The notes under the pieces are model-generated. The model had not been told where the DNA came from, did not search any database, and was given only the letters and a program-made list of their open reading frames with translations. The translations under genes and the position numbers were made by a program. A stretch of 64,000 nucleotides of DNA from Escherichia phage Sa157lw, in the sequence record OK322699.1; one strand, 5' to 3'. Positions 3,398-63,509 of this stretch are shown here, piece by piece. The number at the start of each line of letters is the position of its first letter. Position 1 is the first letter of the stretch.

Positions 3398-3443
3398 ATA
3401 GGGATTCACTATAAGACCGCTAATAGTTTTCAATAAGTGGGCA

Positions 3444-4963: not shown

Positions 4964-4989
4964 ATTTAAAATTTATTCAATAAACGGGG

Positions 4990-5017
4990 TTTACTTCTTC
5001 AATAAACCCCGTATACT
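4990..5017 (+). promoter_or_regulatory. early sigma70-type promoter (-35 TTTACT, 16-bp spacer containing TTCAATAA, -10 TATACT)
   Basis: sequence read directly; member of repeated promoter family. Confidence 0.55.
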
Positions 5018-5066
5018 TCATTCCATAAGCAGCACAACACTGACTCTGAAATGAAGGAACTACACC

Positions 5067-5504
5067 ATGACCACAGCAAAAGTTACCATCTACGCTTTCG
5101 ACGCTTTCTCTAAATTTGACGCATTCGTCTCCTCCGCATTTGGTATCAAAGAAGTTGAAGCAGAGAAAACTTTCTGTGGTGGACTCGGCAAGTTTGCCAA
5201 CCTGAGTTTATCCCTGACAGAGTTCATGAAATCTCTTGAAGGTCACTTTGACGCCGAAACCATTCGCACTTCCTTACTCAAGAAAGACGGCACCCCTCGC
5301 AAACTGTCTGGCAAGACTAGAATTTACGATGCTGACGGCTTTACTGTGTCTGTGCATTTTACTGAAGAACCTGTGTACGAACTTTTCAGCGGGTCTGAGG
5401 ACCTCACTCACTATGTGGTCAGGAAAGGCGATTCCCGCCCTGTGTTCGAATCTGGCGACATCCTCGCCGCTATCAAAGAACTTGCGCGTCTGAATAGCCT
5501 CTAA
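5067..5504 (+). CDS. hypothetical early protein
   Basis: 145 aa; downstream of promoter and conserved leader GAAGGAACTACACCATG. Confidence 0.45.
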   Translation: MTTAKVTIYAFDAFSKFDAFVSSAFGIKEVEAEKTFCGGLGKFANLSLSLTEFMKSLEGHFDAETIRTSLLKKDGTPRKLSGKTRIYDADGFTVSVHFTEEPVYELFSGSEDLTHYVVRKGDSRPVFESGDILAAIKELARLNSL

Positions 5505-11984: not shown

Positions 11985-12653
11985 ATGCAAGAGATCACTC
12001 TCTCTGAACGCACTTTACAACTGCTGGCCAACTTTGAAACCATTTGCCCTTCTATCGTTCTGGCACCTGGTAAAAAGCTGCGCACTGTTAACGACTCCAG
12101 CACCGTCATCGCTATCGCTGACATCGACGAAGACTTCCCGTTTGAATTCCCTATTTTGGACCTGACCAAACTTCTGGCCATTCAGCGTCTGCCTAGTTTC
12201 AAAGGCGGTAAAATCGAAATGTCGGAAGATCATATTTTACTGAAAGGTGAAAACTCGCAGCTGCAATTCTGGCGCTCAGCAAAAGAATTGACTGTCGTTC
12301 CTGCCGACAGCATTGATCTCCCGTCCGTTGAATTCGAAGCGACGGTCACTCCTGAAAAAATGAAAGAGCTGACCCGCGCCTGTTCTACTCTGGGACACAA
12401 AACTGTTCGTCTGGTTGCCAGCGGCGGTAAAACCCGTCTGGTCGGTACGACTACGACTATCGATAATTCCAACGATTACACCGTTGAATTGGGTGAAACT
12501 GCTCTGGCTGATTTCGCTATGCCTGTCGACGTTGTTAACCTGAAAATGATCGAGGGCAACTATGTGATCCGCGCCTGTGCTGAAATGCAGCTTGTTAACT
12601 TCCAGTCGGCAGATGGTACCATCAACTACTACGTTGGCATGCAGCTGGATTAA
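11985..12653 (+). CDS. 45: sliding clamp gp45
   Basis: 222 aa; N-terminal LLANFETICPSI pattern like T4 gp45; followed by gp44/gp62. Confidence 0.85.
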   Translation: MQEITLSERTLQLLANFETICPSIVLAPGKKLRTVNDSSTVIAIADIDEDFPFEFPILDLTKLLAIQRLPSFKGGKIEMSEDHILLKGENSQLQFWRSAKELTVVPADSIDLPSVEFEATVTPEKMKELTRACSTLGHKTVRLVASGGKTRLVGTTTTIDNSNDYTVELGETALADFAMPVDVVNLKMIEGNYVIRACAEMQLVNFQSADGTINYYVGMQLD

Positions 12654-12683
12654 TCAATATCGCTTCGGCGCTTTATTATCGGT

Positions 12684-15524: not shown

Positions 15525-15548
15525 TATAAACCGTTATTCATTAAACAA

Positions 15549-15575
15549 CAGAGGCTATAATGGCCTCTGTTTTTG
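15549..15575 (+). terminator. stem-loop CAGAGGC tataatg GCCTCTG + TTTTTG
   Basis: inverted repeat read directly. Confidence 0.6.
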
Positions 15576-16825: not shown

Positions 16826-16864
16826 TTTACTTCATTCTTCAATAACCCCCTTTCAACGTATATT
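16826..16864 (+). promoter_or_regulatory. promoter-like element of the TTTACTTC-TTCAATAA family (spacing atypical)
   Basis: TTTACTTCattcTTCAATAA .. TATATT; conserved leader AGGAAGACTATACCATG downstream. Confidence 0.35.
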
Positions 16865-20771: not shown

Positions 20772-21038
20772 TTCTTCAAAAGTCTTTCAAAATCAATAAC
20801 GTCCGGCAAAATGCTGGGCGTTTCAATTAATAAGCCAAGGTATAATGGCCCAACTGAAAACGCGGGGGAATTTCTTTGTCCAAGCCATTCATTCGTTCCG
20901 GAGTTGATTCTCTAGACTCCCAATTTAAGCCGAGCGAAGTTTTAATCCAACAAATTGAAACCAATCGTGAATTCATAGAACACATGTTGGCAAAGCCGGA
21001 AGGCGAAGCCGCTCAAACCACCAAAGAAGGTAATAACG

Positions 21039-23255: not shown

Positions 23256-23293
23256 ATCTAATTGGCGGGGAAACCCGCCTTTACTTTCAGGAA

Positions 23294-23619: not shown

Positions 23620-23648
23620 AATCCCCAATATTTATTGGGGATTTTTAC
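23620..23648 (+). terminator. stem-loop AATCCCCAATA ttt TATTGGGGATT + TTTT
   Basis: 11-bp inverted repeat read directly. Confidence 0.6.
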
Positions 23649-23657
23649 TTTTAGGGG

Positions 23658-23686
23658 TTTACTTCTTCTAAAGAATATCCTATTAT
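23658..23686 (+). promoter_or_regulatory. early sigma70-type promoter (-35 TTTACT, 17-bp spacer, -10 TATTAT)
   Basis: promoter family member; TTCAATAA lies just downstream of -10. Confidence 0.5.
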
Positions 23687-23731
23687 TCAATAACTGGCTA
23701 ACGTGGGGTTGGCTAGAAAAGGAGATACAAA

Positions 23732-24210: not shown

Positions 24211-24223
24211 TTCTATAAACTCC

Positions 24224-24250
24224 GGCGGGGTATGATTACCCCGCCTATTT
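24224..24250 (+). terminator. stem-loop GGCGGGG tatgatta CCCCGCC + TATTT
   Basis: inverted repeat. Confidence 0.5.
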
Positions 24251-25224: not shown

Positions 25225-25303
25225 ATACGATAGTTTATTGAAACCCTTTACTCAACATGGTGACAGCCCTATCATTTTATCCAATGAAATAAGGAGAATC
25301 ACC

Positions 25304-26360: not shown

Positions 26361-27167
26361 ATGATTATTACTAAAAAGATCGCCGAATCGATCGTTGAAA
26401 AGAATAAGATGTTCGCGCCCAACAAAGCAAAGGTCATTCTGATTCACGAAGACGGGCGCGTCATCTTCGCTGAGAAGTTTGAGCAGGGTTGTGCTTTCTG
26501 GTTCGCAGATACTATGCGCGAAAGCAAGCTGCAGGGCATCATCTATAAATTGACCCTGGTTGCCAAGCGCAATGATCAGGGTGATTGGGTTACGGTCTGC
26601 GATTTCAGCTCTAAGGTTGAAACGAAAGCCAAAACCCGCCAAGAAAGAATTTTAGAGGCTCAGGAAAAACTTCGGGTCGCTCGCACATCATCCGCGGAGA
26701 AGCCGGAAATAAAACCAGCCGTTATGCCTGTCACCAATAATCCGCTCCCACCTGTGGGTCAAAAGGCTTTCGAACAATATGTTGAAAAGAGAAAAGAAGA
26801 ATCTATGAAGACTCCGGTAGAAAATAATGATGAGTCTGAATTCATTTCAATACGACAGTTGTGCCCGCAAGAACAACGTTATTCTTCTCCAAATGATTTA
26901 TTTGTGTCATTCAGATGCAACGGGAAGATCATCCTGTGTAAAACTCTGCGTGAACAACTACCATGGCCTAACATCAATATGATGGTGAGTCGCAATTTTA
27001 AACGATTTGCTATTAGTGAAGGGAACGATTATCCCGTAAACAAGAGCGGAACGTATGCCAACAAACATATGTGTGGTAAGTTGTCTTTCCCTAACGATTC
27101 CGGAACCATCCGCGTTCGTTTAGAATGGGATGAAACCCTGAACATGTATGTTGGTGATATAAAATAA
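26361..27167 (+). CDS. hypothetical protein
   Basis: ORF 26358..27167 (GTG) trimmed to adjacent ATG. Confidence 0.45.
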   Translation: MIITKKIAESIVEKNKMFAPNKAKVILIHEDGRVIFAEKFEQGCAFWFADTMRESKLQGIIYKLTLVAKRNDQGDWVTVCDFSSKVETKAKTRQERILEAQEKLRVARTSSAEKPEIKPAVMPVTNNPLPPVGQKAFEQYVEKRKEESMKTPVENNDESEFISIRQLCPQEQRYSSPNDLFVSFRCNGKIILCKTLREQLPWPNINMMVSRNFKRFAISEGNDYPVNKSGTYANKHMCGKLSFPNDSGTIRVRLEWDETLNMYVGDIK

Positions 27168-27180
27168 TTCAATAACATTA

Positions 27181-27210
27181 GGGCGGTTATTATTAAACCG
27201 CCTTTTATTT
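27181..27210 (+). terminator. stem-loop GGGCGGTT attatta AACCGCC + TTTTATTT
   Basis: inverted repeat. Confidence 0.55.
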
Positions 27211-29794: not shown

Positions 29795-29877
29795 ACGCTT
29801 TATTCAATAATATTTGTTAGGTAAGCTGTAGTCCTCTTGTAGTGAAACATTGTAAACAACTAACTGGAGTAATCCGA

Positions 29878-30156
29878 ATGAACCGTACTGATTTTATCGC
29901 TCACATCGCCCAGACTCAGGGTATGACCAAAGGCGAAGCAGAGAAGATCGTGGCATCCTTTATCAATGGCGTAAAAACTGCAGTCGCAGCTGGCCAATCT
30001 GTCCAATTCGTCGGCTTCGGCGCGTTTGAAGTTAAACATCAGGAAGCGCGCACTGGTCGCAACCCGCTGAACGGGCAAGCGATTCAGATCGAAGCGAAAA
30101 ATGTTGTTAAATTCAAAGTCGGCGAAGGTCTGAAAGCTGCTGCCAACGGCCAGTAA
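29878..30156 (+). CDS. HU/IHF-family DNA-binding protein
   Basis: ORF 29842..30156 trimmed to MNRTDF (GGAG RBS); FxGFGxFEV..R.GRNP..G..I arm motifs of HU. Confidence 0.8.
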   Translation: MNRTDFIAHIAQTQGMTKGEAEKIVASFINGVKTAVAAGQSVQFVGFGAFEVKHQEARTGRNPLNGQAIQIEAKNVVKFKVGEGLKAAANGQ

Positions 30157-35223: not shown

Positions 35224-37557
35224 ATGAGCAACGTAGATCTATTATCAAAATTTGGTTCGCTGTTGAAAGAAGCGGACGCTCCTGTTATTGTTGAAGCACC
35301 ATTTGAAATCCGTGGGGAAATTACTCACAAACTGACTTTCCATCGTGGTCGCGCTAAGAACTTTCGTTCTATCGGTAATGAATTCATGGAAATTGATTAC
35401 CAACGCAATTCGGCAACCTTGGTTACATCCGATGACAATGGCGCTGGTAAATCCACCATGCTTGTCTGGCTGCTGTTCTTCGTTCTGTACAACGACACGT
35501 ACAGCAAGAAAGAGAAGAAAGCCGGATTGGTTAACTCTCAAAACAAAAAGGAATGCGTGGGTGAAGTTGAGTTCTCAACTCGCGGTAGTGAATGGAAAGT
35601 CCGTCGGGGTATCAAACCAGATTTTGTAGAAGTTTATCAGATGGTGGAAGGAGAGTGGAAGCAAGTCGTGAACGATGCGGCCAAAGCTGATATGAACAAG
35701 TACATCGTGAATCTCATCGGCGTGGACCAGAAGATGTTCGAGAACTCTTTGGTTCTGGGCAAGGAGAAGTTTATTCCTTTCACAGAGATGTATACCGCTG
35801 ACCGCCGCGCCATGGTTGAAACAATTTGGGACTTGGGTTTCTTCAGCCTGATGAATGAGGATGTTAAAGCATCTATCAAGGCGGTAACGAACGAACTCAC
35901 GACGGTCACCAATGATTACGCCTTTCATGATGTGAATCTAAAAGGCCAGCAAGCGCAGTTGGAACAGATCAATAATTCCAATGCGATGGTTCAGCAACAA
36001 TCTGCGGATATCCTTGTCCAAGAGAAGGAACGTCTGAATAGCCTGAATTCAGATATCGGCGCAGTGCAGGAACAACTGACCGAGTCCCGTGCTCAAGACT
36101 CTAAATTGGAATCAGAATTATCAGAAGTCCGTAATCGCCTGAACGCTGAAATGAAGGTGGATATCGATGCCATCAATGACGAGTATTTTGCCAAAATTCA
36201 AGCGGTACAGGATGAGGCTGATACCAAGGCTGAAGACTATGAACGTATCGAGGTGTCTGATGGCGAACGTTCATTACAAGAAATTCGTGAGAGAATGGCG
36301 GTAGTCGCGGAACGTAAAAATGATCTGGTCAGCCAACGGAATGCTAACCTGGATGAACTGAACAAAGCATTAGCGCGGCGTCAGCAGGGTGAGAACTTCC
36401 GTATCAAATTCGTAACAGAAATGGAAGGACATGAATCTGCCATCAAACGTTTTCACGATATGGGCACTTGCCCTACGTGTACGCAATTAGTGTCGGACGA
36501 TACCAAATCACGCATTGAAAGTCAATATTATCCACAAATCATTGAACTGACTGACAAGATTCTTCAGGTTGACACAGCCCTAGAAGAAGTTAATTCCCTG
36601 ATTGAGAATTACAACGTCAAAGATTCAGAATTATCTTCTCAGATTTCGGTTGTTGACAAAGAACTGGATGCTTTGCGCAATGAAATCCGAGAAGCGGAAT
36701 CAGCGATCGCTGCATTAAAACGCGACATCCAAGGATTCTATGATGTGGCAGCTGTTGAGAAAACATCTTTACAGCGGGAACAACAGTCCAAAATTAACGA
36801 TATCCTCAAGGCCGTAGACACCCGTTACGAAGATATCACGACGTCAATCCGTCAAGCGCGCGAGCAGCTCTCTAAGAGTATCAACGACACGGCTGATAAA
36901 CTCACCAGCCTGAAATCACGCCGTGCCCCTCTGGAGGCATCCATTGCCGATTTAGAGCGTAAATTGGCGGTTAAGCCGACACCAACTGACACCCTGGAAG
37001 AAGAGATCGCTCGCATCACGGCGTTAATGGAAGATCTGAATGCGCGGCGCGTAGAGTTGGATGAGAAATTGCAAGACCTGAACCATCTTCTGTTCTTCCT
37101 AAAAGATGATCAGACCAAGGCTCGAATTATCAGCCTGTATTTGCCTTTCCTCAATAGTAAAATAAACGAGTATCTTGAAGCACTCAATATGTTCTTGGAT
37201 ATTGCTGTTGATGATACATTTGAAATCACCATGAGCGCTGCAGGTCGTAAAGGGCAAAGTATCTTCTCGTTATCTACTGGTCAGCGTAGTCGCCTGAACC
37301 TGGCTGTGACATTAGCTTTACGCGATGTTGCAAACCTCAAGGCGTCGGTGCAATGTAACCTGTTTGTGTTAGATGAAATCCTTGAGAACATGAGCGAGCG
37401 CGGCGTACAAGAATCGGTTGAGATGCTGAAGCATAAATTTGGCGGGAACAATCTGTTCGTTATCAGTCAACGCGAGCAGGAATTCCAAGAGTATTTCCAA
37501 CACAACATCCGTTATGGTCTGCGTAATGGCATGACTGAAGTGATTAAGAAGGATTGA
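35224..37557 (+). CDS. 46: recombination endonuclease subunit gp46 (Rad50/SbcC-like)
   Basis: 777 aa; Walker A NGAGKST, long coiled coil, CPTC zinc hook, signature LSTGQRSR, Walker B LFVLDE. Confidence 0.85.
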   Translation: MSNVDLLSKFGSLLKEADAPVIVEAPFEIRGEITHKLTFHRGRAKNFRSIGNEFMEIDYQRNSATLVTSDDNGAGKSTMLVWLLFFVLYNDTYSKKEKKAGLVNSQNKKECVGEVEFSTRGSEWKVRRGIKPDFVEVYQMVEGEWKQVVNDAAKADMNKYIVNLIGVDQKMFENSLVLGKEKFIPFTEMYTADRRAMVETIWDLGFFSLMNEDVKASIKAVTNELTTVTNDYAFHDVNLKGQQAQLEQINNSNAMVQQQSADILVQEKERLNSLNSDIGAVQEQLTESRAQDSKLESELSEVRNRLNAEMKVDIDAINDEYFAKIQAVQDEADTKAEDYERIEVSDGERSLQEIRERMAVVAERKNDLVSQRNANLDELNKALARRQQGENFRIKFVTEMEGHESAIKRFHDMGTCPTCTQLVSDDTKSRIESQYYPQIIELTDKILQVDTALEEVNSLIENYNVKDSELSSQISVVDKELDALRNEIREAESAIAALKRDIQGFYDVAAVEKTSLQREQQSKINDILKAVDTRYEDITTSIRQAREQLSKSINDTADKLTSLKSRRAPLEASIADLERKLAVKPTPTDTLEEEIARITALMEDLNARRVELDEKLQDLNHLLFFLKDDQTKARIISLYLPFLNSKINEYLEALNMFLDIAVDDTFEITMSAAGRKGQSIFSLSTGQRSRLNLAVTLALRDVANLKASVQCNLFVLDEILENMSERGVQESVEMLKHKFGGNNLFVISQREQEFQEYFQHNIRYGLRNGMTEVIKKD

Positions 37558-37868: not shown

Positions 37869-38194
37869 AAGTCGTCCACTTCAAGAAGGAGCCATATGAC
37901 GTCTACATTGGGCGGCCTGGCAAATGGGGTAATGACTTCGAAGTCAAAGACCATGGGCGCGGCGTTTGTATCGAGTTATTCGAAGACGATTTGTATGTGC
38001 GTCTGATTGAAGGGGAAATCACTGAGGATGAACTCCTTGAACTGGACGGAAAGATTCTAGGGTGCTGGTGTAAACCACGCCCCTGCCACGGGGATGTTTA
38101 CGTCAAAGTGATCGGTCGTATTAAACTATTCCGTAAGTTGGGTAAATCTTTTACTGAATATTTGAGACAAACATATGTCAGAAGAGAAAGATGA
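37865..38194 (+). CDS. DUF4326-like protein
   Basis: GTG start; YIGRPGKWGN and CWCKPRPCHGD motifs. Confidence 0.45.
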   Translation: MKVVHFKKEPYDVYIGRPGKWGNDFEVKDHGRGVCIELFEDDLYVRLIEGEITEDELLELDGKILGCWCKPRPCHGDVYVKVIGRIKLFRKLGKSFTEYLRQTYVRRER

Positions 38195-38459
38195 AATACA
38201 GATTGCTTGTGATATCGCTGTGGAATTATGGAATCAGCGAAATAGACATCATCAGGTAGCATTGACACCAAAACGTTACCTAGAGCAAGGTGGGTTGATC
38301 GTTGTTGACGCCGTCTTGGGTTTCAACAAGTACACAGATATGCAAATCCTCCAAGGGGATTTCATAGTGGCATCAAAATCAGCATGGGACGATCCTATGG
38401 AGTTTGTCTACGGCTGGTTAGAGTGTATTGAGGAATCATACCATCTGATCTACGAATAA
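38175..38459 (+). CDS. hypothetical small protein
   Basis: 94 aa ORF. Confidence 0.35.
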   Translation: MSEEKDEIQIACDIAVELWNQRNRHHQVALTPKRYLEQGGLIVVDAVLGFNKYTDMQILQGDFIVASKSAWDDPMEFVYGWLECIEESYHLIYE

Positions 38460-38464
38460 GGTGA

Positions 38465-38498
38465 AGGGCACTAAATATCAAGTGCCCTTTATCTTTTA
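38465..38498 (+). terminator. stem-loop GGGCACT aaatatcaa GTGCCC + TTTATCTTTT
   Basis: inverted repeat. Confidence 0.55.
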
Positions 38499-38555
38499 AC
38501 CCTGTCAGGAGGCTCAATCGAGCTGCAAGTCGACAAACACATAAGGAACGCCATC

Positions 38556-39173
38556 ATGACGATGACAACGTTGAAGGCCATGGCCTTGTCCGTGACCTTT
38601 ACCATTGCCAGCGGGAGTGTGCACGCTTCCCAAAGTACCACCCAATGTGATTACGAATTTTCTGATCAGCAACTTTCAACTATGGCCACTGCCTATCACA
38701 TAGGCAAACAGCAAGACCTTGGTTTCACCCTAGCCGCGATATCATGGAGGGAAAGCCGCGCCGGAGAAGATGTGGTATCCATGCGGAATAACCTGAAATC
38801 GGCTAATATGGGGGCATTCCAAAATCGCGTCCAAACCGTTGGGAAACGGGAGGGATGCAAAACACAGAAGTGTTACGCCAACGTGGCGATTAAATTGCTG
38901 GTCAATCAAGAGTACGCAGCCAATGCAGCCCTTGATGAAATGAATTTCTGGCTTGGATATCATAACCAAAACATCCGCAAATCGCTCTCCTCTTACAATG
39001 CCGGTTTCAGTCGTAACCAAAAATCCAATTCATACGCTGCTGATGTCGTGAAGAAGGCTAAATATCTTCAACGATGTGTGTCTTTCAAAGGCATGGCAAT
39101 AAACCCGAAGGTCGACCCAGGAGTGATCGCCATGAATAAGCGCACGATTGAGAAACTCAAGAGGACCCGATAA
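38556..39173 (+). CDS. secreted protein with lytic transglycosylase (SLT)-like motif
   Basis: signal peptide with VHA-SQ cleavage-like site; AISWRESRAGEDVVS..ANMGAFQN resembles the ES..GLMQ motif of SLT domains. Confidence 0.4.
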   Translation: MTMTTLKAMALSVTFTIASGSVHASQSTTQCDYEFSDQQLSTMATAYHIGKQQDLGFTLAAISWRESRAGEDVVSMRNNLKSANMGAFQNRVQTVGKREGCKTQKCYANVAIKLLVNQEYAANAALDEMNFWLGYHNQNIRKSLSSYNAGFSRNQKSNSYAADVVKKAKYLQRCVSFKGMAINPKVDPGVIAMNKRTIEKLKRTR

Positions 39174-39811
39174 TGAATATCACTCCATCCCAGACCGGAT
39201 ACGAGCACTTAATGGTGTTTATTGCGATTCAGGGGGCAAAAGAAGGCATCATCAGTTCTGAATATTCTGGAACGATGCGCCTGGCTGATTATGTTGCTCC
39301 CGAAGCGTTTATCAAGAAATGTATCGACGCATGGTGCCTTTATGCTCTCGGCACGTATCCTACTCCTCCGGCAGGTGAGCTACTGTTTACCGTTCCGACC
39401 CCAGCCGCTGGCGACACAGACGCGATCTTTGCTGATATGTTGGCCAAAGGTTATTTGGCGTATGACAGTGCTCATGATGTCTACGATTTCTCGGCGTTGA
39501 ATCGTATCTTCGGATACACCATAACATCCGAAGCCAATATTCCCGACTATGGAATTCTGGCATGGGGTATTGACGGTCTCGGCGCAACATATGCGTCTTC
39601 TGATGTTGGTCCTGTATTGATTGACACAGGTGTGACAATGGAGCAATACATGTCACAATTCCCTCAGCATAATGTTACCGGAAGCGATATCATTATCGTC
39701 TATCCTGGTTCCAATGCGTTGTCCCGCCTGGTGGACGGCTGGAAACCTCAGCTGAAGGACATCGTTGCTGGAATCAGATTTCACATCCCTGTCGTCAATC
39801 CCACACCTTAA
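39173..39811 (+). CDS. hypothetical protein
   Basis: 212 aa, TAATG-coupled to upstream gene. Confidence 0.4.
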   Translation: MNITPSQTGYEHLMVFIAIQGAKEGIISSEYSGTMRLADYVAPEAFIKKCIDAWCLYALGTYPTPPAGELLFTVPTPAAGDTDAIFADMLAKGYLAYDSAHDVYDFSALNRIFGYTITSEANIPDYGILAWGIDGLGATYASSDVGPVLIDTGVTMEQYMSQFPQHNVTGSDIIIVYPGSNALSRLVDGWKPQLKDIVAGIRFHIPVVNPTP

Positions 39812-39840
39812 AATAATTCAATAAAAGGGGCAAACGCCCC

Positions 39841-39868
39841 TTTACTTCTTCAATAACTACCGTATAAT
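39841..39868 (+). promoter_or_regulatory. early sigma70-type promoter (-35 TTTACT, 16-bp spacer with TTCAATAA, -10 TATAAT)
   Basis: best match to consensus in the family; preceded by hairpin AGGGGC aaac GCCCCT. Confidence 0.6.
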
Positions 39869-39916
39869 TCTAAACATAAGCAGTACGACACCAACTTGAA
39901 AAGCAGGAACTATATC

Positions 39917-40285
39917 ATGACCAAAACTGAATTGAACAACATTCTGAACGTTGCTGGGTACAAGAATATTCGTCGTGGGAATAACAAAATCGCGCGTGAC
40001 CGTAGCAACAAAATCATCAAGGGGTTTCCCCTGTGTAAAACTGGTCCTCTCGATATCAGCAACCCGTCCAAGCGCTTGTTTAAAGACTTATTGCGTGAAC
40101 TCGGCACTAAAGGCCTGGTGCTAGATAAAAAGGATGACCTGGTTGACTTTGGCATCGCGGTTATGAAGATTGCCAAATTCAAAATAACTCTGTGCGTACA
40201 GACCATTCAGACATATGACTACTCTGAAGGCCGTGACCCGAATTACGAAACAAAATATGTCAACGTAAGGATTGAAGGGTTATAA
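39917..40285 (+). CDS. hypothetical early protein
   Basis: ORF 39896..40285 trimmed to ATG after conserved leader CAGGAACTATATCATG. Confidence 0.45.
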   Translation: MTKTELNNILNVAGYKNIRRGNNKIARDRSNKIIKGFPLCKTGPLDISNPSKRLFKDLLRELGTKGLVLDKKDDLVDFGIAVMKIAKFKITLCVQTIQTYDYSEGRDPNYETKYVNVRIEGL

Positions 40286-40366
40286 TACGAATATGCGGGG
40301 GCTTGATGCCCCTTTCTTTTCGCTAATTAAGGAAAACCGCACCGATTTATTATCAGGAGAATTACA

Positions 40367-42754
40367 ATGGCCATCCAATCTTTCTTAAATTTCCTTGACG
40401 AGTCCAAACAATTGGACGAAGCGTTTAACTCCGCTCCATACGAATTGACTTTCGGCAAGAAAAATGCTGGTGACATTTTCTTCACGTTCGTAGACGAAGA
40501 TGAAAAAGAATTCCGCATCCAATTTTATACCCCGCAGGGGCTGGGCAAGAACGTTCGTCAGGTCTTCATAGGCCAGAAACGTGGTTCAACCTATCCAGAC
40601 GCAATCGGTCGTTTCAAAAACCCAATGCGTGTCATCGCATCCATGATCGAAGCGACTAAACAATTCATGGCGACACCGCTGGGTAAAACCATTGATGGGT
40701 TTGCGATTAACTTCTCCAAGAAAGCTCTAGAACGCGGAACGACGTTACTCCCAAAAATTATTCGTCAATCTGGTCTGAAGCAGAAACTCAACGTCATGGA
40801 TCTGACTTATACCCCAATCCCTGACCGTGCCTTCGTATGGGTTGTGCGTAAAGGCAAGGATCCTGCTCAGGTATTTGATGGTCCGAAAATGAAAGGCGTG
40901 ACTTGGGACGATCCAGACAAAGTCGGTGACGTTCCTGACCAGGCTGCTCGTGACGCCGCACTACAAGGTGACATGGATGATTTGAGCCAATCCATAAATG
41001 CCGATTCTCGCTGGATTCTGACCAAAGCTGATCATACTCAGCCTATGCTGGTCTGGTCTGGTAAAGAACGTGGGCGGACTATTACCGCCAATATCGCACC
41101 TCACGCGAATGAACCTGGTGTGTATGCTGGTAGTATCATGAACGAGAAACGGATCCGCGCTCAATCCCCAGACGCTATTGTACGCCAACTGGGATTACCG
41201 CAGATCCCTGTGAATATTCTGAATGATTTCACCAAGCAGTCGTCCATCTTCTGGAAAGAGATGACGGGGGATTCTGGAAAAATAGACATGCAGACTTTGC
41301 CAAAAACAGGATCTGTGGATGACTTACGAAATCAGGGTTATATTGCTCGCCTTCTGGGGATTGTAGACACATATGCTCCACAACAGGTCGGTATGTATGC
41401 AGGTGAGAAACTAACACGAATCGGCGCGGGCAAATATCGTACTTCGGGTGGTCTGGACATTCAGGTTTATTTCTGGGGAATTGTCAACGGAAAACTTTCT
41501 GTAGAAGTGGTTTCTGATTTATCTGGCAATGAACAGCTGATGCTGGAAGGCGACGTGAAAAACGCTGCTTTTGAAATCGTCAGTGCGATATCCCGTGCTG
41601 CTGATTCTCAGTTCAACGGTGAAGTGGAATGTCGTGTTGTTCCGATCAACGGTGCCCCATACCCGATTCAAAAGGTTTCCCGTTCTCAGGGTTATTCTTA
41701 TGTCGATTGTATTTCGTTTACTTTGAAGATCGCCGATGCATTGTTAAATCGATTTACTCTGGGTAAGGCAGTCAAACTCGATCTGATAAAAGAGTTCCCT
41801 CGAACGACGTTTATTGTTCGTTATGACTGGCGCAGCAAAGATACTCTGATGGTCCAGTCTTCTGATGGGAAGACTATCTTCGGCGAAATCAACACAAATT
41901 CCAGTGATAACGCTGTCATCACTGCGAACCTGAAAGCCCCAAGCAATGCGAAGATATTTGGTGAAACCGTTCATGGGTTCTCTGTGGCTTGGGACTTCCA
42001 GTTCCCTGCGGGTAGCCAGCTGCAAGCCGCAAGATTCGTTACCAACGTGACTTACGACTTCGATCGTAATAAGGCCAACATCACGACCATGCTGACAGAA
42101 AATGGCCGAAATGTAGTCAATAGCAGCGGATATGACATTCAGTTATCTGTCAAGTCTGTGCAAGATGCATTGAATGAGACTTCACAACGCCTGAAAGACG
42201 CTGCGGCTCAATTGAGCCATCTTGGTTCATCAAACTATAACCCGAACAAGCTGTTCCTGAATGATATCACCGTCAGTAAGTTTGGTGCAATTATGTTCCA
42301 AGACAAAGATCTGGCACAGTCCAAAAACCGCACGGCAGTCATTGATGCTTTGGCTCGGGCGAAAGATCAGGTCGCTGGTGGTAAGAATGCAGGCGATCTG
42401 GCCACCTATGCCGGATCCATTCGTGATAGCGCTCCTAATGGACGAGATCTGGATTGGCAGGTATACACAGCCAGTAATGGTACAGTTCTGAATGTTGCCT
42501 GGGATATCACTTTCCGTCGCAATACGACCGAAGGAGCATATCGTGAATTCAAGGATCAGATCAACCGTGCCAACCAATACCTGCAAACGGTATACAACGA
42601 CGCGAAATCTAAAGGCTATAATCCTACCGAGCCAAATCTCATGACTCTTGAACGCGCTCGCCAATCCGACGAATGGGCTATGAGTAATGGTGATAGTGCA
42701 TACAGTGAATATGAACAATCGCTGGGTGGTAATCTTCAGATTAGTCTGAAATAA
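40367..42754 (+). CDS. hypothetical large protein (795 aa)
   Basis: long ORF, AGGAGAATTACAATG start; shares a ~40-aa module with the next gene. Confidence 0.5.
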   Translation: MAIQSFLNFLDESKQLDEAFNSAPYELTFGKKNAGDIFFTFVDEDEKEFRIQFYTPQGLGKNVRQVFIGQKRGSTYPDAIGRFKNPMRVIASMIEATKQFMATPLGKTIDGFAINFSKKALERGTTLLPKIIRQSGLKQKLNVMDLTYTPIPDRAFVWVVRKGKDPAQVFDGPKMKGVTWDDPDKVGDVPDQAARDAALQGDMDDLSQSINADSRWILTKADHTQPMLVWSGKERGRTITANIAPHANEPGVYAGSIMNEKRIRAQSPDAIVRQLGLPQIPVNILNDFTKQSSIFWKEMTGDSGKIDMQTLPKTGSVDDLRNQGYIARLLGIVDTYAPQQVGMYAGEKLTRIGAGKYRTSGGLDIQVYFWGIVNGKLSVEVVSDLSGNEQLMLEGDVKNAAFEIVSAISRAADSQFNGEVECRVVPINGAPYPIQKVSRSQGYSYVDCISFTLKIADALLNRFTLGKAVKLDLIKEFPRTTFIVRYDWRSKDTLMVQSSDGKTIFGEINTNSSDNAVITANLKAPSNAKIFGETVHGFSVAWDFQFPAGSQLQAARFVTNVTYDFDRNKANITTMLTENGRNVVNSSGYDIQLSVKSVQDALNETSQRLKDAAAQLSHLGSSNYNPNKLFLNDITVSKFGAIMFQDKDLAQSKNRTAVIDALARAKDQVAGGKNAGDLATYAGSIRDSAPNGRDLDWQVYTASNGTVLNVAWDITFRRNTTEGAYREFKDQINRANQYLQTVYNDAKSKGYNPTEPNLMTLERARQSDEWAMSNGDSAYSEYEQSLGGNLQISLK

Positions 42755-43761: not shown

Positions 43762-43824
43762 CTCAATAGGATCATCGTCAGGTTATAATTTTGCCCATTC
43801 GTCATCAATAGGATACAGATAACA

Positions 43825-45765: not shown

Positions 45766-45805
45766 AAATACTTCAAAAATAATTTAAAAATTTATTGAAA
45801 AAGAC

Positions 45806-45834
45806 TTTACTCTTCAATAATCATGCACTATTAT
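45806..45834 (+). promoter_or_regulatory. early sigma70-type promoter (-35 TTTACT, TTCAATAA spacer, -10 TATTAT)
   Basis: promoter family member. Confidence 0.55.
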
Positions 45835-48448: not shown

Positions 48449-48532
48449 ATACCACACGAACTTCCCCGTCGCCTTCAATCCATGGAGGCGACGTATAATA
48501 ACAGCCTGCATTAACACAAACCGAGGATCGCT

Positions 48533-52223: not shown

Positions 52224-52249
52224 TATTTCAAAGCCCCTGATCCAGGGGC

Positions 52250-52278
52250 TTTACTTTTGAAACCTTCCCGCCTATACT
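52250..52278 (+). promoter_or_regulatory. early sigma70-type promoter (-35 TTTACT, 17-bp spacer, -10 TATACT) overlapping terminator hairpin AGCCCCTG atc CAGGGGCT
   Basis: promoter family member. Confidence 0.5.
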
Positions 52279-52329
52279 TCCCAATAATTCATTGGCAAAC
52301 GCCACAAATTGAACAGCAGGAACTATATC

Positions 52330-52563
52330 ATGACCAATTCTGAAATATATCATGCTTCTATGCATTATCATGACCTACGCGCCCGTCCAGGACACGCCAA
52401 ACAAAAAGCATTCTGGGTGGCAGAACTCAGATTACGCCGTGCCGTCGTTAACCACCAAATAATCATGAATCGGAAAAACGACAAATCACCGTTGTTGGCA
52501 GATTCTTATCTTGAACTCCGCACAGCCTATGAACAAGCCAAACAGCACGTAATAGGAGCATAA
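52330..52563 (+). CDS. hypothetical early protein
   Basis: ORF 52309..52563 trimmed to ATG after conserved leader CAGGAACTATATCATG. Confidence 0.4.
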   Translation: MTNSEIYHASMHYHDLRARPGHAKQKAFWVAELRLRRAVVNHQIIMNRKNDKSPLLADSYLELRTAYEQAKQHVIGA

Positions 52564-53811: not shown

Positions 53812-55437
53812 TCATGCGTCTTTACCACCAAAGTTGCCGCCATTATCCTCCAGTTCCGGTTTTATATCAATTGGACCAGGACCAGAAGTAGATACTGGAG
53901 TTGCCCCAGCGCGTGATGCAGCACGACCAGCACCTTCAGCATATTTGATGTTGCCTTCAATAGTCTGCGCCACCGACAACTTATCACAAACTATTTCACT
54001 AGCCAGTATTTTAGGCACTTTTAAAGTATTGGAAACTTCCAACATCTCGCAGATGATACGCATCACGTTTTGCGCCTGAATTTCGGCCAGCTGTGAAAAT
54101 TTCATCAACGCCGTGCCAGCAACCACATTGGAGTAGTTCGATGAATGTAGATGATAGACCTCACCTGTCTTGCGCTGAACTTCAGTCCCACCAATGGTCA
54201 GGTTGTGATCACGACCAACATAGTAACGTTTGTCAAACATCGTCAGATCATAATGATCTTTGACTGATTTATTGACCACGTCCCCGTCAGGAAGCATCTG
54301 CTTATAAGACCCCGAGGAGTGCATCCAATGGAGACGTTCCCCGCCTGGTGTGTCATCAACCTCCATAATATGCCCCGACCGAGATGCCATGACATTGTTG
54401 TAAGGATAACGAGACCCGCCAGCAGAAGGAACCGACACCTCTCCTGTGTTATCAATATCTTGAACACGCCCAGAAGGAGGCGGAGTTTCCTGAACTTTTG
54501 GTGTACGATCGGGGATTGGCTCAGACCATTTACCATTTTGTTGCGCAGGAGCCGCCGATGCTGTCGTAGCAGGACCAGGCCAACGATAACCCAACACAGA
54601 TGAGCGGCTGAAGCGACTCACCTTCACAGAATCTGATTGGTTGCCTCCAATACACCAAACATAATTGGCATCGAATTTCTGTACAAACGCAACGTGTCCA
54701 AATGTTGGGTTGTTGCCACGACGGAATACAACAACTGCGCCGTAACGGGGTTCTGACAAAGGGGAACCCCATTGCAAATATGAACGAGCCAAAGCCGAGC
54801 GCGTTGAAGTGTATCCTGCTTGGATCAACACCCATCCCACAAATGAAGCGCACCAGCTGACTTCATCTTCCGAAGCGCCCAAAGATGTTGTCTTGTGATA
54901 TTCCAAAATCCTTGGGTTATTATTGAATTTGCCAGAATATTCTTTGACACCTAATTCACCACGAGCCACTGTCATCCATTTCTCAGGATCATAACCGTCC
55001 ACAGGCGGTTGAGGTTCTGGTTGTGGGTCGTCTTCAATCTTGACAGGAACATTTTCAACGGCGTTATATTTCTGTCTTTCTATAGATTGAACAACCTGGC
55101 CCAGCGCCAACGGGTTTGTGTCTGAACCATCCGTTGGTGTCGCCGCTGGCCAAACCCAGGCGATACGAATATTTTGGTATGCTTCATCCAAAGCAAATCC
55201 CATAACATCCGACCCGACTGTAATACCCGTTGGAGACCAGCCTAAACCTGCCGAGGAGGCGTTAGATGCTGGCATGAGCATTTTACCCCAAGGCAATAAT
55301 TCGGTAGGTAAGAGAGTGGTATCTTCCGTGTGTACACCATAGATGCGCACAGCGACGCGCCCGTTCTGGTCGGGATCATTCACGTCTTCAACGCGCCCGT
55401 AAAACCAACGCAAGTTGTCTAACATATTGAAACCCAT
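53812..55437 (-). CDS. 5: gp5-like baseplate central spike with CHAP/TIGR02594-like peptidoglycan hydrolase domain
   Basis: N-terminal OB-like GRVEDVNDPDQNGRVAVRIYGVHT, middle KEYSG..WCASFV..GHVAFV domain, Gly/Ser-rich C-terminus. Confidence 0.7.
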   Translation of the reverse strand: MGFNMLDNLRWFYGRVEDVNDPDQNGRVAVRIYGVHTEDTTLLPTELLPWGKMLMPASNASSAGLGWSPTGITVGSDVMGFALDEAYQNIRIAWVWPAATPTDGSDTNPLALGQVVQSIERQKYNAVENVPVKIEDDPQPEPQPPVDGYDPEKWMTVARGELGVKEYSGKFNNNPRILEYHKTTSLGASEDEVSWCASFVGWVLIQAGYTSTRSALARSYLQWGSPLSEPRYGAVVVFRRGNNPTFGHVAFVQKFDANYVWCIGGNQSDSVKVSRFSRSSVLGYRWPGPATTASAAPAQQNGKWSEPIPDRTPKVQETPPPSGRVQDIDNTGEVSVPSAGGSRYPYNNVMASRSGHIMEVDDTPGGERLHWMHSSGSYKQMLPDGDVVNKSVKDHYDLTMFDKRYYVGRDHNLTIGGTEVQRKTGEVYHLHSSNYSNVVAGTALMKFSQLAEIQAQNVMRIICEMLEVSNTLKVPKILASEIVCDKLSVAQTIEGNIKYAEGAGRAASRAGATPVSTSGPGPIDIKPELEDNGGNFGGKDA

Positions 55438-55774
55438 TAGTCAATTAGAATCATGGGTTATTTATGGCGGGGATTTGAAATCTGTCGAATAGTAATATTA
55501 TAGGAAGCTCTGCTTCCGTTCAACTTTATTCTTTTCGTTTCTACTCGCTGAAGCTCGTAACACCGCCTTGACAGGCAGTCCCATTCCAATGCCATGGAGG
55601 CATAAAGGCGAGGAAAATACTGTACACCTCAGAACATGCGTAGAAAAGGATTATTTTTGCTTCAAAACAAATTCAAACCCCAATTTACACAACACTTACT
55701 TCAGCAACAACGGTGTTATAGCAATTTAAGGTTAAACGTTCCTGTCTTAACCTATAAAACAGGTAAGCAAAGAA

Positions 55775-55800
55775 AACCCCACATTACGTGGGGTTGGAAG
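55775..55800 (-). terminator. minus-strand terminator AACCCCAC gtaatg TGGGGTT + TTCTTTGC
   Basis: inverted repeat read on reverse complement. Confidence 0.55.
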
Positions 55801-55944
55801 ATTTCTTGGACAAACGTATCTTTAGTGTCTCTGTTAGCAAATCAAGATGCCAAGGCATCGACTCGCTTATTTCAAATATGCTATAGCCATGTGCCTTTAA
55901 TTCGTCACACATCACAAAGTAGGAGAGTAAATCAATTTCAAAAA

Positions 55945-59439: not shown

Positions 59440-59534
59440 CTCAATAGCAAAAGGCAGTATAATTACATCGTCGGAATAATAGACAAATACATTTATAGAA
59501 TAGCCCGAAGGGGCGGATTATAGAGGAATATAAA

Positions 59535-60608: not shown

Positions 60609-61739
60609 AACGACGTCTTGTAACAAACCGAGTAAACTACTCTTCTCAGACGCCGTCAGGTTATCATTGCCTAATATATCCCTCTGGATGCCGATAGAGA
60701 TCCTTTCGAAGTCTGCCAGGCTGATACCCGCCAAATTATTTACAAGCTGATCGAGTTGCTTGTAGGCCAGTAGGGCTTCACCTGTAAAGTTCCCTTCCTT
60801 AATCTTTTTATACAGCTGTCCGGCTTTTGACGCTGCGGTTTCCCAATCTCCGGAAGCAAGAGCATCAGCAATGCCCAAAGGAAGAAAGTCGCTGGCGAGG
60901 CTGCGCGTTTCATATTCAGTCTCCGATAATACTTTATTGTAAGAGAACGATATATTGTACTGGTTAAATTGGTCGGCGGCACTTTTGTCGAGGTCGATGG
61001 AACTGAAGTTAATAGGATGAGCCTCCGTCACATAAACACGGTGCACCACCTGGTCTTCTGTATCCATTTGCTCTATACAAATATCAGTCACGAAATCTTC
61101 GTAATAACCCATCTTGGTCGTATATGGGTCGAATATCAAATTCTTCCATTTATCCATGACCGACTTTTCATAATAGTCGTTGGCAAGGAGAAATGATAAC
61201 TCCAGATCAACGTTTGTTTTGTTGTTCGGCATCTTAATATGGTTGCCGTTATTTGTCATTGGCGTTGTATCAATCCCAGTACCAGGCAAAGAAGCAACCA
61301 TACACATCATTTGTAAGGAACGAGACGTCTGGTTTGTCCCTCCAAAGAAAGCGTTTACAATACGGGCGCTTTGTTTGAACAGATCCCCAAATGATGAAGA
61401 TGAAGGATATGCGTTGCCGTCATTGGATAGAGTCGCATTAGAATCGAAAATACCAGGCGGCAACGGGATTGTAACACGAAATCTGTTCTTGCGGGAAATC
61501 CCCCGCTGAAGCAGTTGCGTTAGAAAATTGCGATAGTCTTCCACGATGAGGACTCCATTTAAATAATATATCTGCTGATATTTATAAGGAGTTGACAAAT
61601 GGCCAAGAACGCTATGGGTGAAGAAGACCCGTTGTTGCTTCCTGCCGAGATGGACGCCCCAGAATTGGTCAAGCGTTACATCCGCAAATATCGTCAACAT
61701 TTTGGACCAGAAGCGAAACGTAATATCCGTCGGTCTCAC
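60600..61739 (-). CDS. hypothetical protein (start uncertain)
   Basis: 379 aa maximal ORF; N-terminal ~140 nt overlaps the + gene at 61599, so true start is probably internal (candidates near 61310 or 61259). Confidence 0.4.
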   Translation of the reverse strand: MRPTDITFRFWSKMLTIFADVTLDQFWGVHLGRKQQRVFFTHSVLGHLSTPYKYQQIYYLNGVLIVEDYRNFLTQLLQRGISRKNRFRVTIPLPPGIFDSNATLSNDGNAYPSSSSFGDLFKQSARIVNAFFGGTNQTSRSLQMMCMVASLPGTGIDTTPMTNNGNHIKMPNNKTNVDLELSFLLANDYYEKSVMDKWKNLIFDPYTTKMGYYEDFVTDICIEQMDTEDQVVHRVYVTEAHPINFSSIDLDKSAADQFNQYNISFSYNKVLSETEYETRSLASDFLPLGIADALASGDWETAASKAGQLYKKIKEGNFTGEALLAYKQLDQLVNNLAGISLADFERISIGIQRDILGNDNLTASEKSSLLGLLQDVVKN

Positions 61740-63403: not shown

Positions 63404-63482
63404 TATTCACGTCAGTCCGCGCTATACCAGCGTTCCGTTGTCTAACACAGAAGTGTTAACCAACTTTTCAATAAAAAGTGGT

Positions 63483-63509
63483 TTACATCTTCTAAAAAGG
63501 CAGTATATT
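63483..63509 (+). promoter_or_regulatory. early sigma70-type promoter (-35 TTTACA, -10 TATATT) preceded by TTCAATAA
   Basis: promoter family member. Confidence 0.45.

Follow-up and report, generated by a model that had tools for sequence, protein, structure and literature searches.

What does a 94-bp element do when it joins a GC-rich hairpin, a promoter-like pair of hexamers and the start of a gene? The question arises at positions 39826-39919 of a 64,000-nt stretch of Escherichia phage Sa157lw DNA (OK322699.1; the window, 45% G+C), where an initial annotation had placed one of a family of near-identical early promoters. Our analysis makes it likely that the element is a stop-and-restart cassette, that promoters of its type (class A) form a dispersed family resembling the PeSL cassettes of T4-like phages, and that the 8-mer TTCAATAA in its spacer is a separate cis element. 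Outside class A this box mostly lies upstream of a −10 hexamer without a −35, an arrangement we call class B. The new result is that TTCAATAA is, as read from the genomes compared, a genome-wide, oriented and conserved promoter-region box, situated mainly at a position like that of the T4 MotA box.

Nearly all genes of the window lie on the + strand, and their order runs from head genes through replication genes (clamp, clamp loader, RegA, helicase, RNase H, gp55, gp46/47, primase, nrdAB and gp32) to the start of a nucleotide-metabolism block. Over positions 38000-42000, the window shares 99.1% identity with Escherichia phage 241 (OR924452; Ackermannviridae, Kuttervirus) and 98% with many Salmonella ViI-like phages. 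The complete genome of phage 241 was assembled from four loci and its annotation mapped onto the window for gene calls; orthologues were drawn from GenBank phage records.

The focal cassette lies on the + strand behind a late structural operon (38556-39811), the last gene of which ends in a stop codon at 39809-39811. Six nucleotides further on, a first TTCAATAA box (39817-39824) is followed by the terminator-like hairpin AAAGGGGC-AAAC-GCCCCTTT (39824-39843), the U-tract of which is the start of a T4-early-type −35 hexamer, TTTACT (39841-39846). This hexamer, invariant in orthologues, doubles as the start of the U-rich tail. A second box (39849-39856), 32 bp from the first measured start to start, lies within the spacer of 16 bp and is separated by 6 bp from the −10 hexamer TATAAT (39863-39868), which reads TATAAT or TATACT in all orthologues. 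The predicted start region coincides with a conserved leader, CATAAGCAGTACGAC (39875-39889), shared with the class A copy at 4990. A Shine-Dalgarno sequence (AGGA), the conserved block ACTATATC and an ATG (39905-39919) complete the cassette and open an ORFan gene (39917-40285), for which there was no Pfam match and a PHROG match of unknown function. The genes upstream are preceded by a late-type CTAAATA motif at 38471, and one of them is the orthologue of a confirmed virion protein of phage LIMEstone1, so the hairpin would close a late unit.

This arrangement is conserved well beyond close relatives. The focal 151 nt are 100% identical in Salmonella phage vB_Hercules_SET, and a search of IMG/VR with the protein encoded downstream added only two near-identical loci. 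We aligned the cassette from eight phages drawn from the genera Kuttervirus (3), Limestonevirus (1), Agtrevirus (2) and Taipeivirus (2). Invariant in this alignment are the upstream box, the non-coding block AATTCAATAAAAGGG-C...G-CCCTTTACTT-TTCAATA, the sequence TTTACTT and the leader CATAAGCAGTACGA, and the −10, in one of its two forms, is kept throughout; the six bases that follow the box in the spacer vary, as do the hairpin loop and the flanking codons. Across five genera the cassette is more conserved than the flanking coding DNA, and a Miltonvirus phage carries a copy of the same layout, TTTACTTCTTCAATAA-N7-TATTAT. The cassette is, from these comparisons, a clear phylogenetic footprint, of which the box is a part separately from the hexamers. 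The hairpin folds as RNA at −13.6 kcal/mol (z = −4.5 against shuffles) and remains 100% paired in the eight orthologues; a single GC-to-AU change in its stem is compensatory, which is weak evidence of covariation.

Class A is a real family. The pattern TTTACT-N16-18-TAnnnT occurs six times on the + strand of the window, where 100 dinucleotide shuffles gave 0.52 ± 0.67, an excess of about 12-fold, and not at all on the − strand; the whole genome of phage 241 holds ten class A copies, every one on the + strand. The seven copies in the window have spacers of 16-17 bp and match the sigma-70 consensus at 9-10 of 12 positions. All are intergenic and co-oriented with the downstream gene, from whose start codon they are separated by leaders of 22-74 nt with a Shine-Dalgarno sequence, and the genes that follow are small, lack Pfam matches and have PHROG matches of unknown function. 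A generic sigma-70 scan recovers those at 4990, 23658, 25247, 39841, 45806 and 52250 with 9-10 of 12 matches. None of the copies has a TG before the −10, as an extended −10 would.

The box has a distribution of its own. An unbiased k-mer comparison of annotated intergenic DNA with the rest of phage 241 placed TTCAATAA at the head of the intergenic 8-mers: of 23 copies on the + strand, 18 are intergenic, where 0.4 would be expected; for its reverse complement the count is 9 of 23. Relative to local transcription, 22 intergenic copies are co-oriented and five anti-oriented (counted from the phage 241 listing), three of the latter being inverted partners just upstream of a class A −35. In the window there are 11 copies on the + strand and seven on the − strand, against about two expected for each. 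Box-to-TAnnnT spacings concentrate sharply at N=12, and a smaller maximum at N=6 is due to class A. A −10 at N11-13 was observed 18 times in phage 241 (2.1 expected), 12 times in LIMEstone1 (0.5 expected) and eight times in the window (0.7 expected); most copies outside class A promoters lie 12 bp upstream of a strong −10. TTCAATAA is a free-standing box: it turns up at several positions within promoter regions, mainly at this one, where a −35 is missing. The initial annotation had suggested that the conserved spacer sequence may be an extra recognition element. The sequence is indeed under constraint of its own, TTCAATA being invariant beside a varying spacer, but it is not tied to the spacer.

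Class B sites number about ten in the window and, by our own count, at least 17 in the whole genome. They are found on either strand, pointing the same way as the genes, and LIMEstone1, PWKp5, IME250 and 3M retain them at orthologous positions; the overall DNA similarity of LIMEstone1 to ViI and CBA120 is about 59%. Beyond the box and the −10 they have little in common, and all their stems are different. No −35 consensus was found across the class B sites at 16-18 bp from the −10, and most also lack TGn. In many of them the −10 lies inside the loop of a GC hairpin that is followed by a T-run (15547-15571 and 27180-27204, for example), and the stems show compensatory changes in orthologues. Copies of the box, of whichever class, often stand just before a hairpin or within its U-rich tail. 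Several boxes start directly after a stop codon, so that a gap of 55-63 nt holds the box, a hairpin with the −10, the T-run, a Shine-Dalgarno sequence and an ATG. The genes that follow class B sites include those for the clamp loader, NrdA, a gp32-like protein, the primase operon and an HU-like protein. By analogy with T4, these downstream genes suggest that class B and class A may correspond to a split between middle and early promoters.

Three other readings were considered and rejected. TTCAAT as a sigma-70 −35 would leave a spacer of 14 bp, and agreement with TTGACA among the hexamers 16-18 bp away amounts to about 2-4 of 6 positions; the TTR positions of an IHF site (consensus reportedly WATCAANNNNTTR) are not conserved; and class B sites cannot be extended −10 promoters in general, TGn being absent from most.

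The individual class A copies, all on the + strand, differ more than had been supposed. All seven sites listed in the initial annotation are present, within 1 nt of where it placed them, and the −35 is T4-early-like as it proposed: the anatomy is that of sigma-70 promoters and fits the T4/PST PeSL consensus TTTACW-N17-TAYWAT (PMC4122927, available text). The description "near-identical" applies to 4990 and 39841, which share TTTACTTCTTCAATAA, and roughly to 45806 (TTTACTCTTCAATAA); elsewhere only the −35 and −10 are common. The copy at 4990-5017 (TTTACTTCTTCAATAA-N6-TATACT) has a CGGGG/CCCCG stem around the −35 and a second box at 4976-4983. About 100 nt of it are identical in Dickeya phage LIMEstone1, and it is paralogous to the focal copy from about −60 through the first codons; the 151-nt focal query matches three to four places per genome. 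At 23658-23686 (TTTACT-N17-TATTAT) a terminator hairpin precedes the promoter at 23620-23643 and TTCAATAA (23686-23693) overlaps the −10 end and the start region. The copy at 25247-25275 (TTTACT-N17-TATCAT), absent from the earlier list, is conserved in LIMEstone1. Orthologues were also found for 45806-45834 (TTTACTCTTCAATAA-N8-TATTAT), which has an inverted box, TTATTGAA (45792-45799), 21 bp away, and, in LIMEstone1 among others, for 52233-52278, where the hairpin GCCCCTGatcCAGGGGC is fused to TTTACT-N17-TATACT and TTCAATAA is missing. The last copy, at 63482-63509 (TTTACA-N16-TATATT), has its box (63467-63474) in the loop of a weak hairpin.

That most copies come immediately after a GC hairpin proved overstated. 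Besides the focal copy, hairpins occur at 52233, 23620 and 4985 and one of the seven copies, 25247, lacks any, yet a strong hairpin abuts the promoter only at 39841 and 52250. The one abutting 63482 is weak, the terminator ends about 14 nt upstream at 23658 and about 45 nt upstream at 45806, and at 4990 the stem encloses the −35 itself. The proposed packing of termination and initiation would describe some copies, the focal one with its stable hairpin among them, and not most. An AT-rich upstream region is present at 4990 and 45806, with a hairpin in its place at 39841 and 52250. The site at 16826-16864, which had been listed as a variant of the family, has its TTTACT 27 nt from the −10 and fits class B instead.

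The likeness among cassettes extends beyond the promoter. A translation-initiation block, TGAAA-G-AGGAACTAYAYCATGACCA, precedes three different ORFan genes (39895-39925, 52308-52338 and 5045-5075) and consists of the Shine-Dalgarno sequence, a fixed spacer and the ATG together with the two opening codons; ACTATATC itself belongs to the most enriched of the intergenic 8-mers. At 23264-23285 the perfect GC hairpin GGCGGGGAAACCCGCC is followed by TTTACTTTCA with no −10 downstream, which makes TTTACTTT a common terminator tail of the phage as well.

The class B sites of the window listed here are on the + strand. The former variant (16838-16864) reads TTCAATAA-N13-TATATT and is conserved in LIMEstone1. 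At 27168-27204, TTCAATAA-N12-TATTAT comes right after a stop codon with its −10 in the loop of the hairpin 27180-27204, and then a T-run; at 15537-15571 the −10 of TTCATTAA-N11-TATAAT is likewise in a loop, that of an 11-bp hairpin followed by a T-run. The site at 24211-24236 (TTCTATAA-N12-TATGAT) has its −10 in the loop of a GGCGGGG/CCCCGCC hairpin, with compensatory stem changes in orthologues from Klebsiella and Serratia phages. Further sites lie at 20822-20846 (TTCAATTA-N11-TATAAT) and at 29803-29827 (TTCAATAA-N11-TAAGCT), the latter upstream of the HU-like gene and conserved in LIMEstone1, PWKp5 and IME250. Class B-like sites precede the clamp-loader gene (12653-12679, ATCAATAT-N13-TATTAT) and nrdA (48474-48499, TTCAATCC-N12-TATAAT), and degenerate ones, both with CTCAATAG, precede the primase operon (43762-43789, N14-TATAAT) and the gene for the gp32-like single-stranded DNA-binding protein (59440-59463, N10-TATAAT). 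Outside the window, a 2.5-kb region of phage 241 beside tRNA genes (78668-81215) has no annotated gene and holds a class B-like ATCAATAA-N12-TATAGT.

How might these parts work together? From the anatomy, the statistics and the conservation, the early-promoter and terminator reading of class A is well supported, and earlier work on relatives and on PeSLs had already pointed to it. At the focal cassette, the GC hairpin with its U-rich tail would end transcripts arriving from upstream, between the late structural operon and the ORFan gene, while the tail, TTTACTT, would double as the −35 of a promoter of sigma-70 type (TTTACT-16 bp-TATAAT). Initiation there by the host RNA polymerase is expected some 7 nt beyond the −10, where the conserved leader CATAAGCAG lies. 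The seven class A promoters would drive small genes of unknown function, as expected of early genes, and the promoters, leaders and ribosome-binding regions together would make up the PeSL-like dispersed repeat family. For class B, transcription beginning about 7 nt beyond the −10 would start in the 3′ arm of the hairpin or after it, so that the new transcript would lack the hairpin and read-through transcripts would form it. A −10 placed inside the upstream terminator's loop could let each gap of 55-60 bp end one transcript and start the next.

A DNA-binding factor would most likely be what recognises TTCAATAA, in the spacer or upstream flank of class A promoters and, more often, at class B. 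We propose only tentatively that such a factor times prereplicative transcription in Ackermannviridae, activating class B and shutting off class A. Bound at a box 12 bp from the −10, it might replace the −35 contact and turn on class B promoters of middle type; at spacer and upstream-flank boxes the same factor might shut off the early class A promoters. Where class A promoters have two boxes, these are 21, 21, 22 or 32 bp apart and the spacing is kept in orthologues. Such spacing would place a bound factor on one helix face around the −35, in a manner typical of repression; the sample being four independent promoters, the point is no more than suggestive.

The factor could be encoded by the phage or be a host protein. 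No MotA or AsiA domain came up when 17 different proteins were scanned against Pfam, and regulator scans with Pfam and PHROGs, covering 18 different proteins (17 in Pfam), returned only a zinc ribbon and an HU/IHF-family protein. The latter is encoded at 29878-30156 (PF00216 Bac_DNA_binding, E = 1e-29), behind its own class B site. In phage SPO1, which has hydroxymethyluracil DNA, the HU-family protein TF1 binds and represses early promoters. Given this precedent, and since ViI-type virion DNA has hypermodified thymidines (PMC5889632, available text), the HU-like protein may be considered a candidate box-binder, and nothing more.

Several points weigh against this picture. In the focal copy, the U-tract that follows the hairpin (UUUACUUCUU) is interrupted, and a terminator scan called the hairpin only on the − strand, not on the +. 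The sequence TTTACTTT also follows hairpins that have no −10 (23280, for instance), so part of the TTTACT signal would be a terminator tail and not a −35. The class A −35 agrees with TTGACA at only four of six positions, and generic sigma-70-like matches in the window are at shuffle level; because these are unenriched, the non-randomness lies in family-specific features rather than in a generic consensus score. The LIMEstone1 record labels the orthologues of 39841 (the focal site) and 45806 "putative middle promoter". Hypermodified thymidines may affect the recognition of these T-rich elements, and a literature search for Ackermannviridae or Kuttervirus transcripts returned no 5′-end or expression data, only the AG3, CBA120 and LIMEstone genome papers.

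How far can the box be explained without a function of its own? Common descent and recombinational homogenisation of a mobile cassette of about 130 bp, combined with a need for A/T-rich DNA around terminators and promoters (an A-tract before the stem, a U-rich tail after it, UP-like DNA), could place the same bases at many sites. The paralogy of 4990 and 39841 and the several matches to the 151-nt query in each genome are what it would predict, as is a box that often directly precedes a hairpin or sits in its U-rich tail, and recombination is known to homogenise PeSL cassettes (PMC2839356, available text). Class B sites, however, are otherwise dissimilar and still keep the box at 12 ± 1 bp from the −10, the box is invariant in orthologues whose neighbouring spacer bases diverge, and an exact 8-mer with 18 of its 23 + strand copies between genes is far more specific than A/T richness. 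We regard this explanation as rather unlikely, although it is the strongest of those set against a functional box. Chance matches to a loose consensus fare far worse. Generic sigma-70-like matches are as frequent in shuffled sequence, as chance would have it, but the family pattern is about 12-fold over expectation, confined to one strand, intergenic and conserved across five genera. Chance is a most improbable account of the signals overall, and for the class A sites the family-specific enrichment, strand exclusivity, intergenic location and cross-genus conservation exclude it.

If instead the sites first annotated were activator-dependent middle-type promoters, with the CTT of TTTACTTCTTC as a MotA-box-like core, the LIMEstone1 labels quoted above would be explained, as would the same label on the orthologue of a further class A site, which lies beyond the window at position 26622 of phage 241; in our own comparison, TTTACTTC resembles the MotA box TTTGCTTT. 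Such an assignment seems improbable, as the −35 and −10 hexamers are at the sigma-70 spacing of 16-17 bp and not at the 12 ± 1 bp that separates a MotA box from its −10. In addition, ORFans rather than replication genes follow, and no homologue of MotA or AsiA is reported for ViI-like phages in the CBA120 paper. It is still harder to credit a role at the level of RNA alone, with a terminator or 3′-end stabiliser and a conserved 5′ untranslated region or processing site, where any likeness to −35 and −10 elements would be incidental to U- or AU-rich signals. The leader and ribosome-binding region are conserved as much as the hexamers, and TTTACTTT tails follow hairpins without a −10, both of which fit such a role. 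Yet the −10 is held 16-17 bp from TTTACT in independent copies with differing spacers, hairpin loops repeatedly hold a strong TATAAT-like hexamer at one set distance from the box, and no Rfam family matched anywhere in the window. The stop-and-restart cassette with a separate box remains the reading we prefer.

This cassette has a close counterpart in T4-like phages. PeSLs, as described in the available text of PMC2839356, combine a sigma-70-like promoter with an AT-rich region and with a GC stem-loop that may lie upstream of, between or over the hexamers; their promoter and terminator activities were measured, termination with reporters, and they have a role in modular gene shuffling. Those of RB49/phi1, T4/PST and KVP40/nt-1 (Arbiol 2010, PMC2839356; Comeau 2014, PMC4122927; available text of both) have the order stop codon, AT-rich region, promoter, stem-loop, Shine-Dalgarno and ATG seen here. 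The Sa157lw cassettes also resemble them in their fit to the T4/PST consensus, in stem-loops upstream of the −35 or over the −10, and as dispersed repeats coinciding with gene insertions and replacements. They differ in belonging to Ackermannviridae, for which our literature search gave no PeSL description, and in carrying TTCAATAA, which goes unmentioned in the available text of the PeSL papers. Whereas activity was measured for the RB49/phi1 cassettes, that of class A is a prediction.

The comparison with T4 itself separates the two classes. Like T4 early promoters (Hinton 2010, PMC2988021), class A has an A/T-rich upstream region, an excellent −10 and a (G)TTTAC-type −35, and the host's sigma-70 polymerase, unmodified, is predicted to use it; GTTTAC as a string did not turn up in the text of that review. 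Unlike them, class A lacks the TGn extended −10, has a hairpin replacing the UP-like region in some copies and numbers about ten copies per genome, compared with about 39 in T4 as quoted in the CBA120 paper. Class B, in which a conserved box precedes a strong −10 by 12 ± 1 bp and a −35 is lacking, has the geometry of T4 middle promoters with their MotA box, and some sites precede clamp-loader, nrdA, gp32-like and primase genes; the combination with stem-loops recalls the MotA-box "PmSL" cassettes of nt-1 (PMC4122927, available text). The box differs, TTCAATAA standing in place of (a/t)(a/t)(a/t)TGCTTtA, and MotA and AsiA homologues are absent from the proteins we scanned and unreported in ViI-like phages (CBA120 paper, Kutter et al.).

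Earlier genome papers on relatives had picked out individual sites. For the T4 early (G)TTTAC consensus, Liebig and Ruger in 1989 are reportedly a source beside Comeau 2014, and the 2012 Viunalikevirus genus paper of Adriaenssens is said to speak of "conserved regulatory sequences" in its abstract and may describe some of the present signals. In the available text of the phiSboM-AG3 paper (Table S2, PMC3121705), the match to the focal promoter, Porf138 (TTttacttcttcaataactcacgTATAAT), is among the "early promoters", while Porf100, Porf069, Porf237 and Porf067 match other class A or class B sites, Porf069 appearing to be the orthologue of 63482; the predicted terminators there include hairpin-plus-tttact tails. 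In the LIMEstone1 record (NC_019925; PMC3296691) the orthologues of 4990, 23658 and 63482 are annotated "putative early promoter". The orthologous features of that genome lie at 94269-94297, 76075-76104, 36530-36559, 61690-61712 and 55428-55450. Both sets of predictions list sites singly, each picked for its likeness to the consensus of E. coli or T4, and in the available text of these papers there is no description of a family, of a TTCAATAA box, of a class with 12-bp spacing or of a −10-in-loop design. A full-text literature search for TTCAATAA together with phage, promoter or TATAAT gave nothing relevant. The CBA120 paper found only eight canonical sigma-70 promoters and considered early promoters not identifiable by informatics, which agrees with a signal that resides in a specific family and not in promoter-likeness.

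Cassettes also coincide with differences in gene content. Five of the eight breakpoints between the window and phage 241 are at or next to a cassette, by our reading of the segment table. The window cassette at 23620-23710 corresponds in phage 241 to two cassettes flanking an extra open reading frame, gene replacements begin at 5122, 24275 and 27227, and the genes after 4990, 24211 and 27168 are unrelated to, or strongly diverged from, those of phage 241. This pattern is consistent with modular shuffling of the PeSL type. Gene content differs from phage 241 at 3405-3421 as well.

Two further signals emerged from the window. The motif CTAAATA(c/t)c has eight copies, all on the + strand: six are intergenic (1061, 9732, 38471, 42774, 43370 and 57792), 20-40 nt upstream of structural or late-looking gene starts, and two are inside genes (22750 and 39058). 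In phage 241, 13 of 16 copies are intergenic. It is probably the gp55-type late promoter of Ackermannviridae, a promoter that the CBA120 paper gives as not yet identified. The 35-nt sequence GGAATGGGACTGCCTGTCAAGGCGGTGTTACGAGC (55553-55587, − strand) lies in a 507-nt non-coding gap (55438-55944) and is repeated exactly in a second long non-coding gap (phage 241 81998-82032); it matched no Rfam family.

Phages of the Ackermannviridae (ViI, CBA120, LIMEstone and relatives) are widely used in biocontrol, diagnostics and reporter-phage engineering, and their early and middle signals have so far been undefined. The present analysis offers a testable map of three signal types: about ten T4-early-type promoters per genome, a larger class with TTCAATAA 12 bp from a −10, and the CTAAATA late motif. 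PeSL-like terminator-promoter cassettes would, in this family, mark points at which relatives swap genes. That the main context of TTCAATAA is a MotA-box-like position, in a phage family with no known MotA, provides a testable lead. If a factor does bind there as proposed, it would be a MotA/AsiA-independent counterpart of T4 sigma appropriation, and hence a second, independent switch from early to middle transcription.

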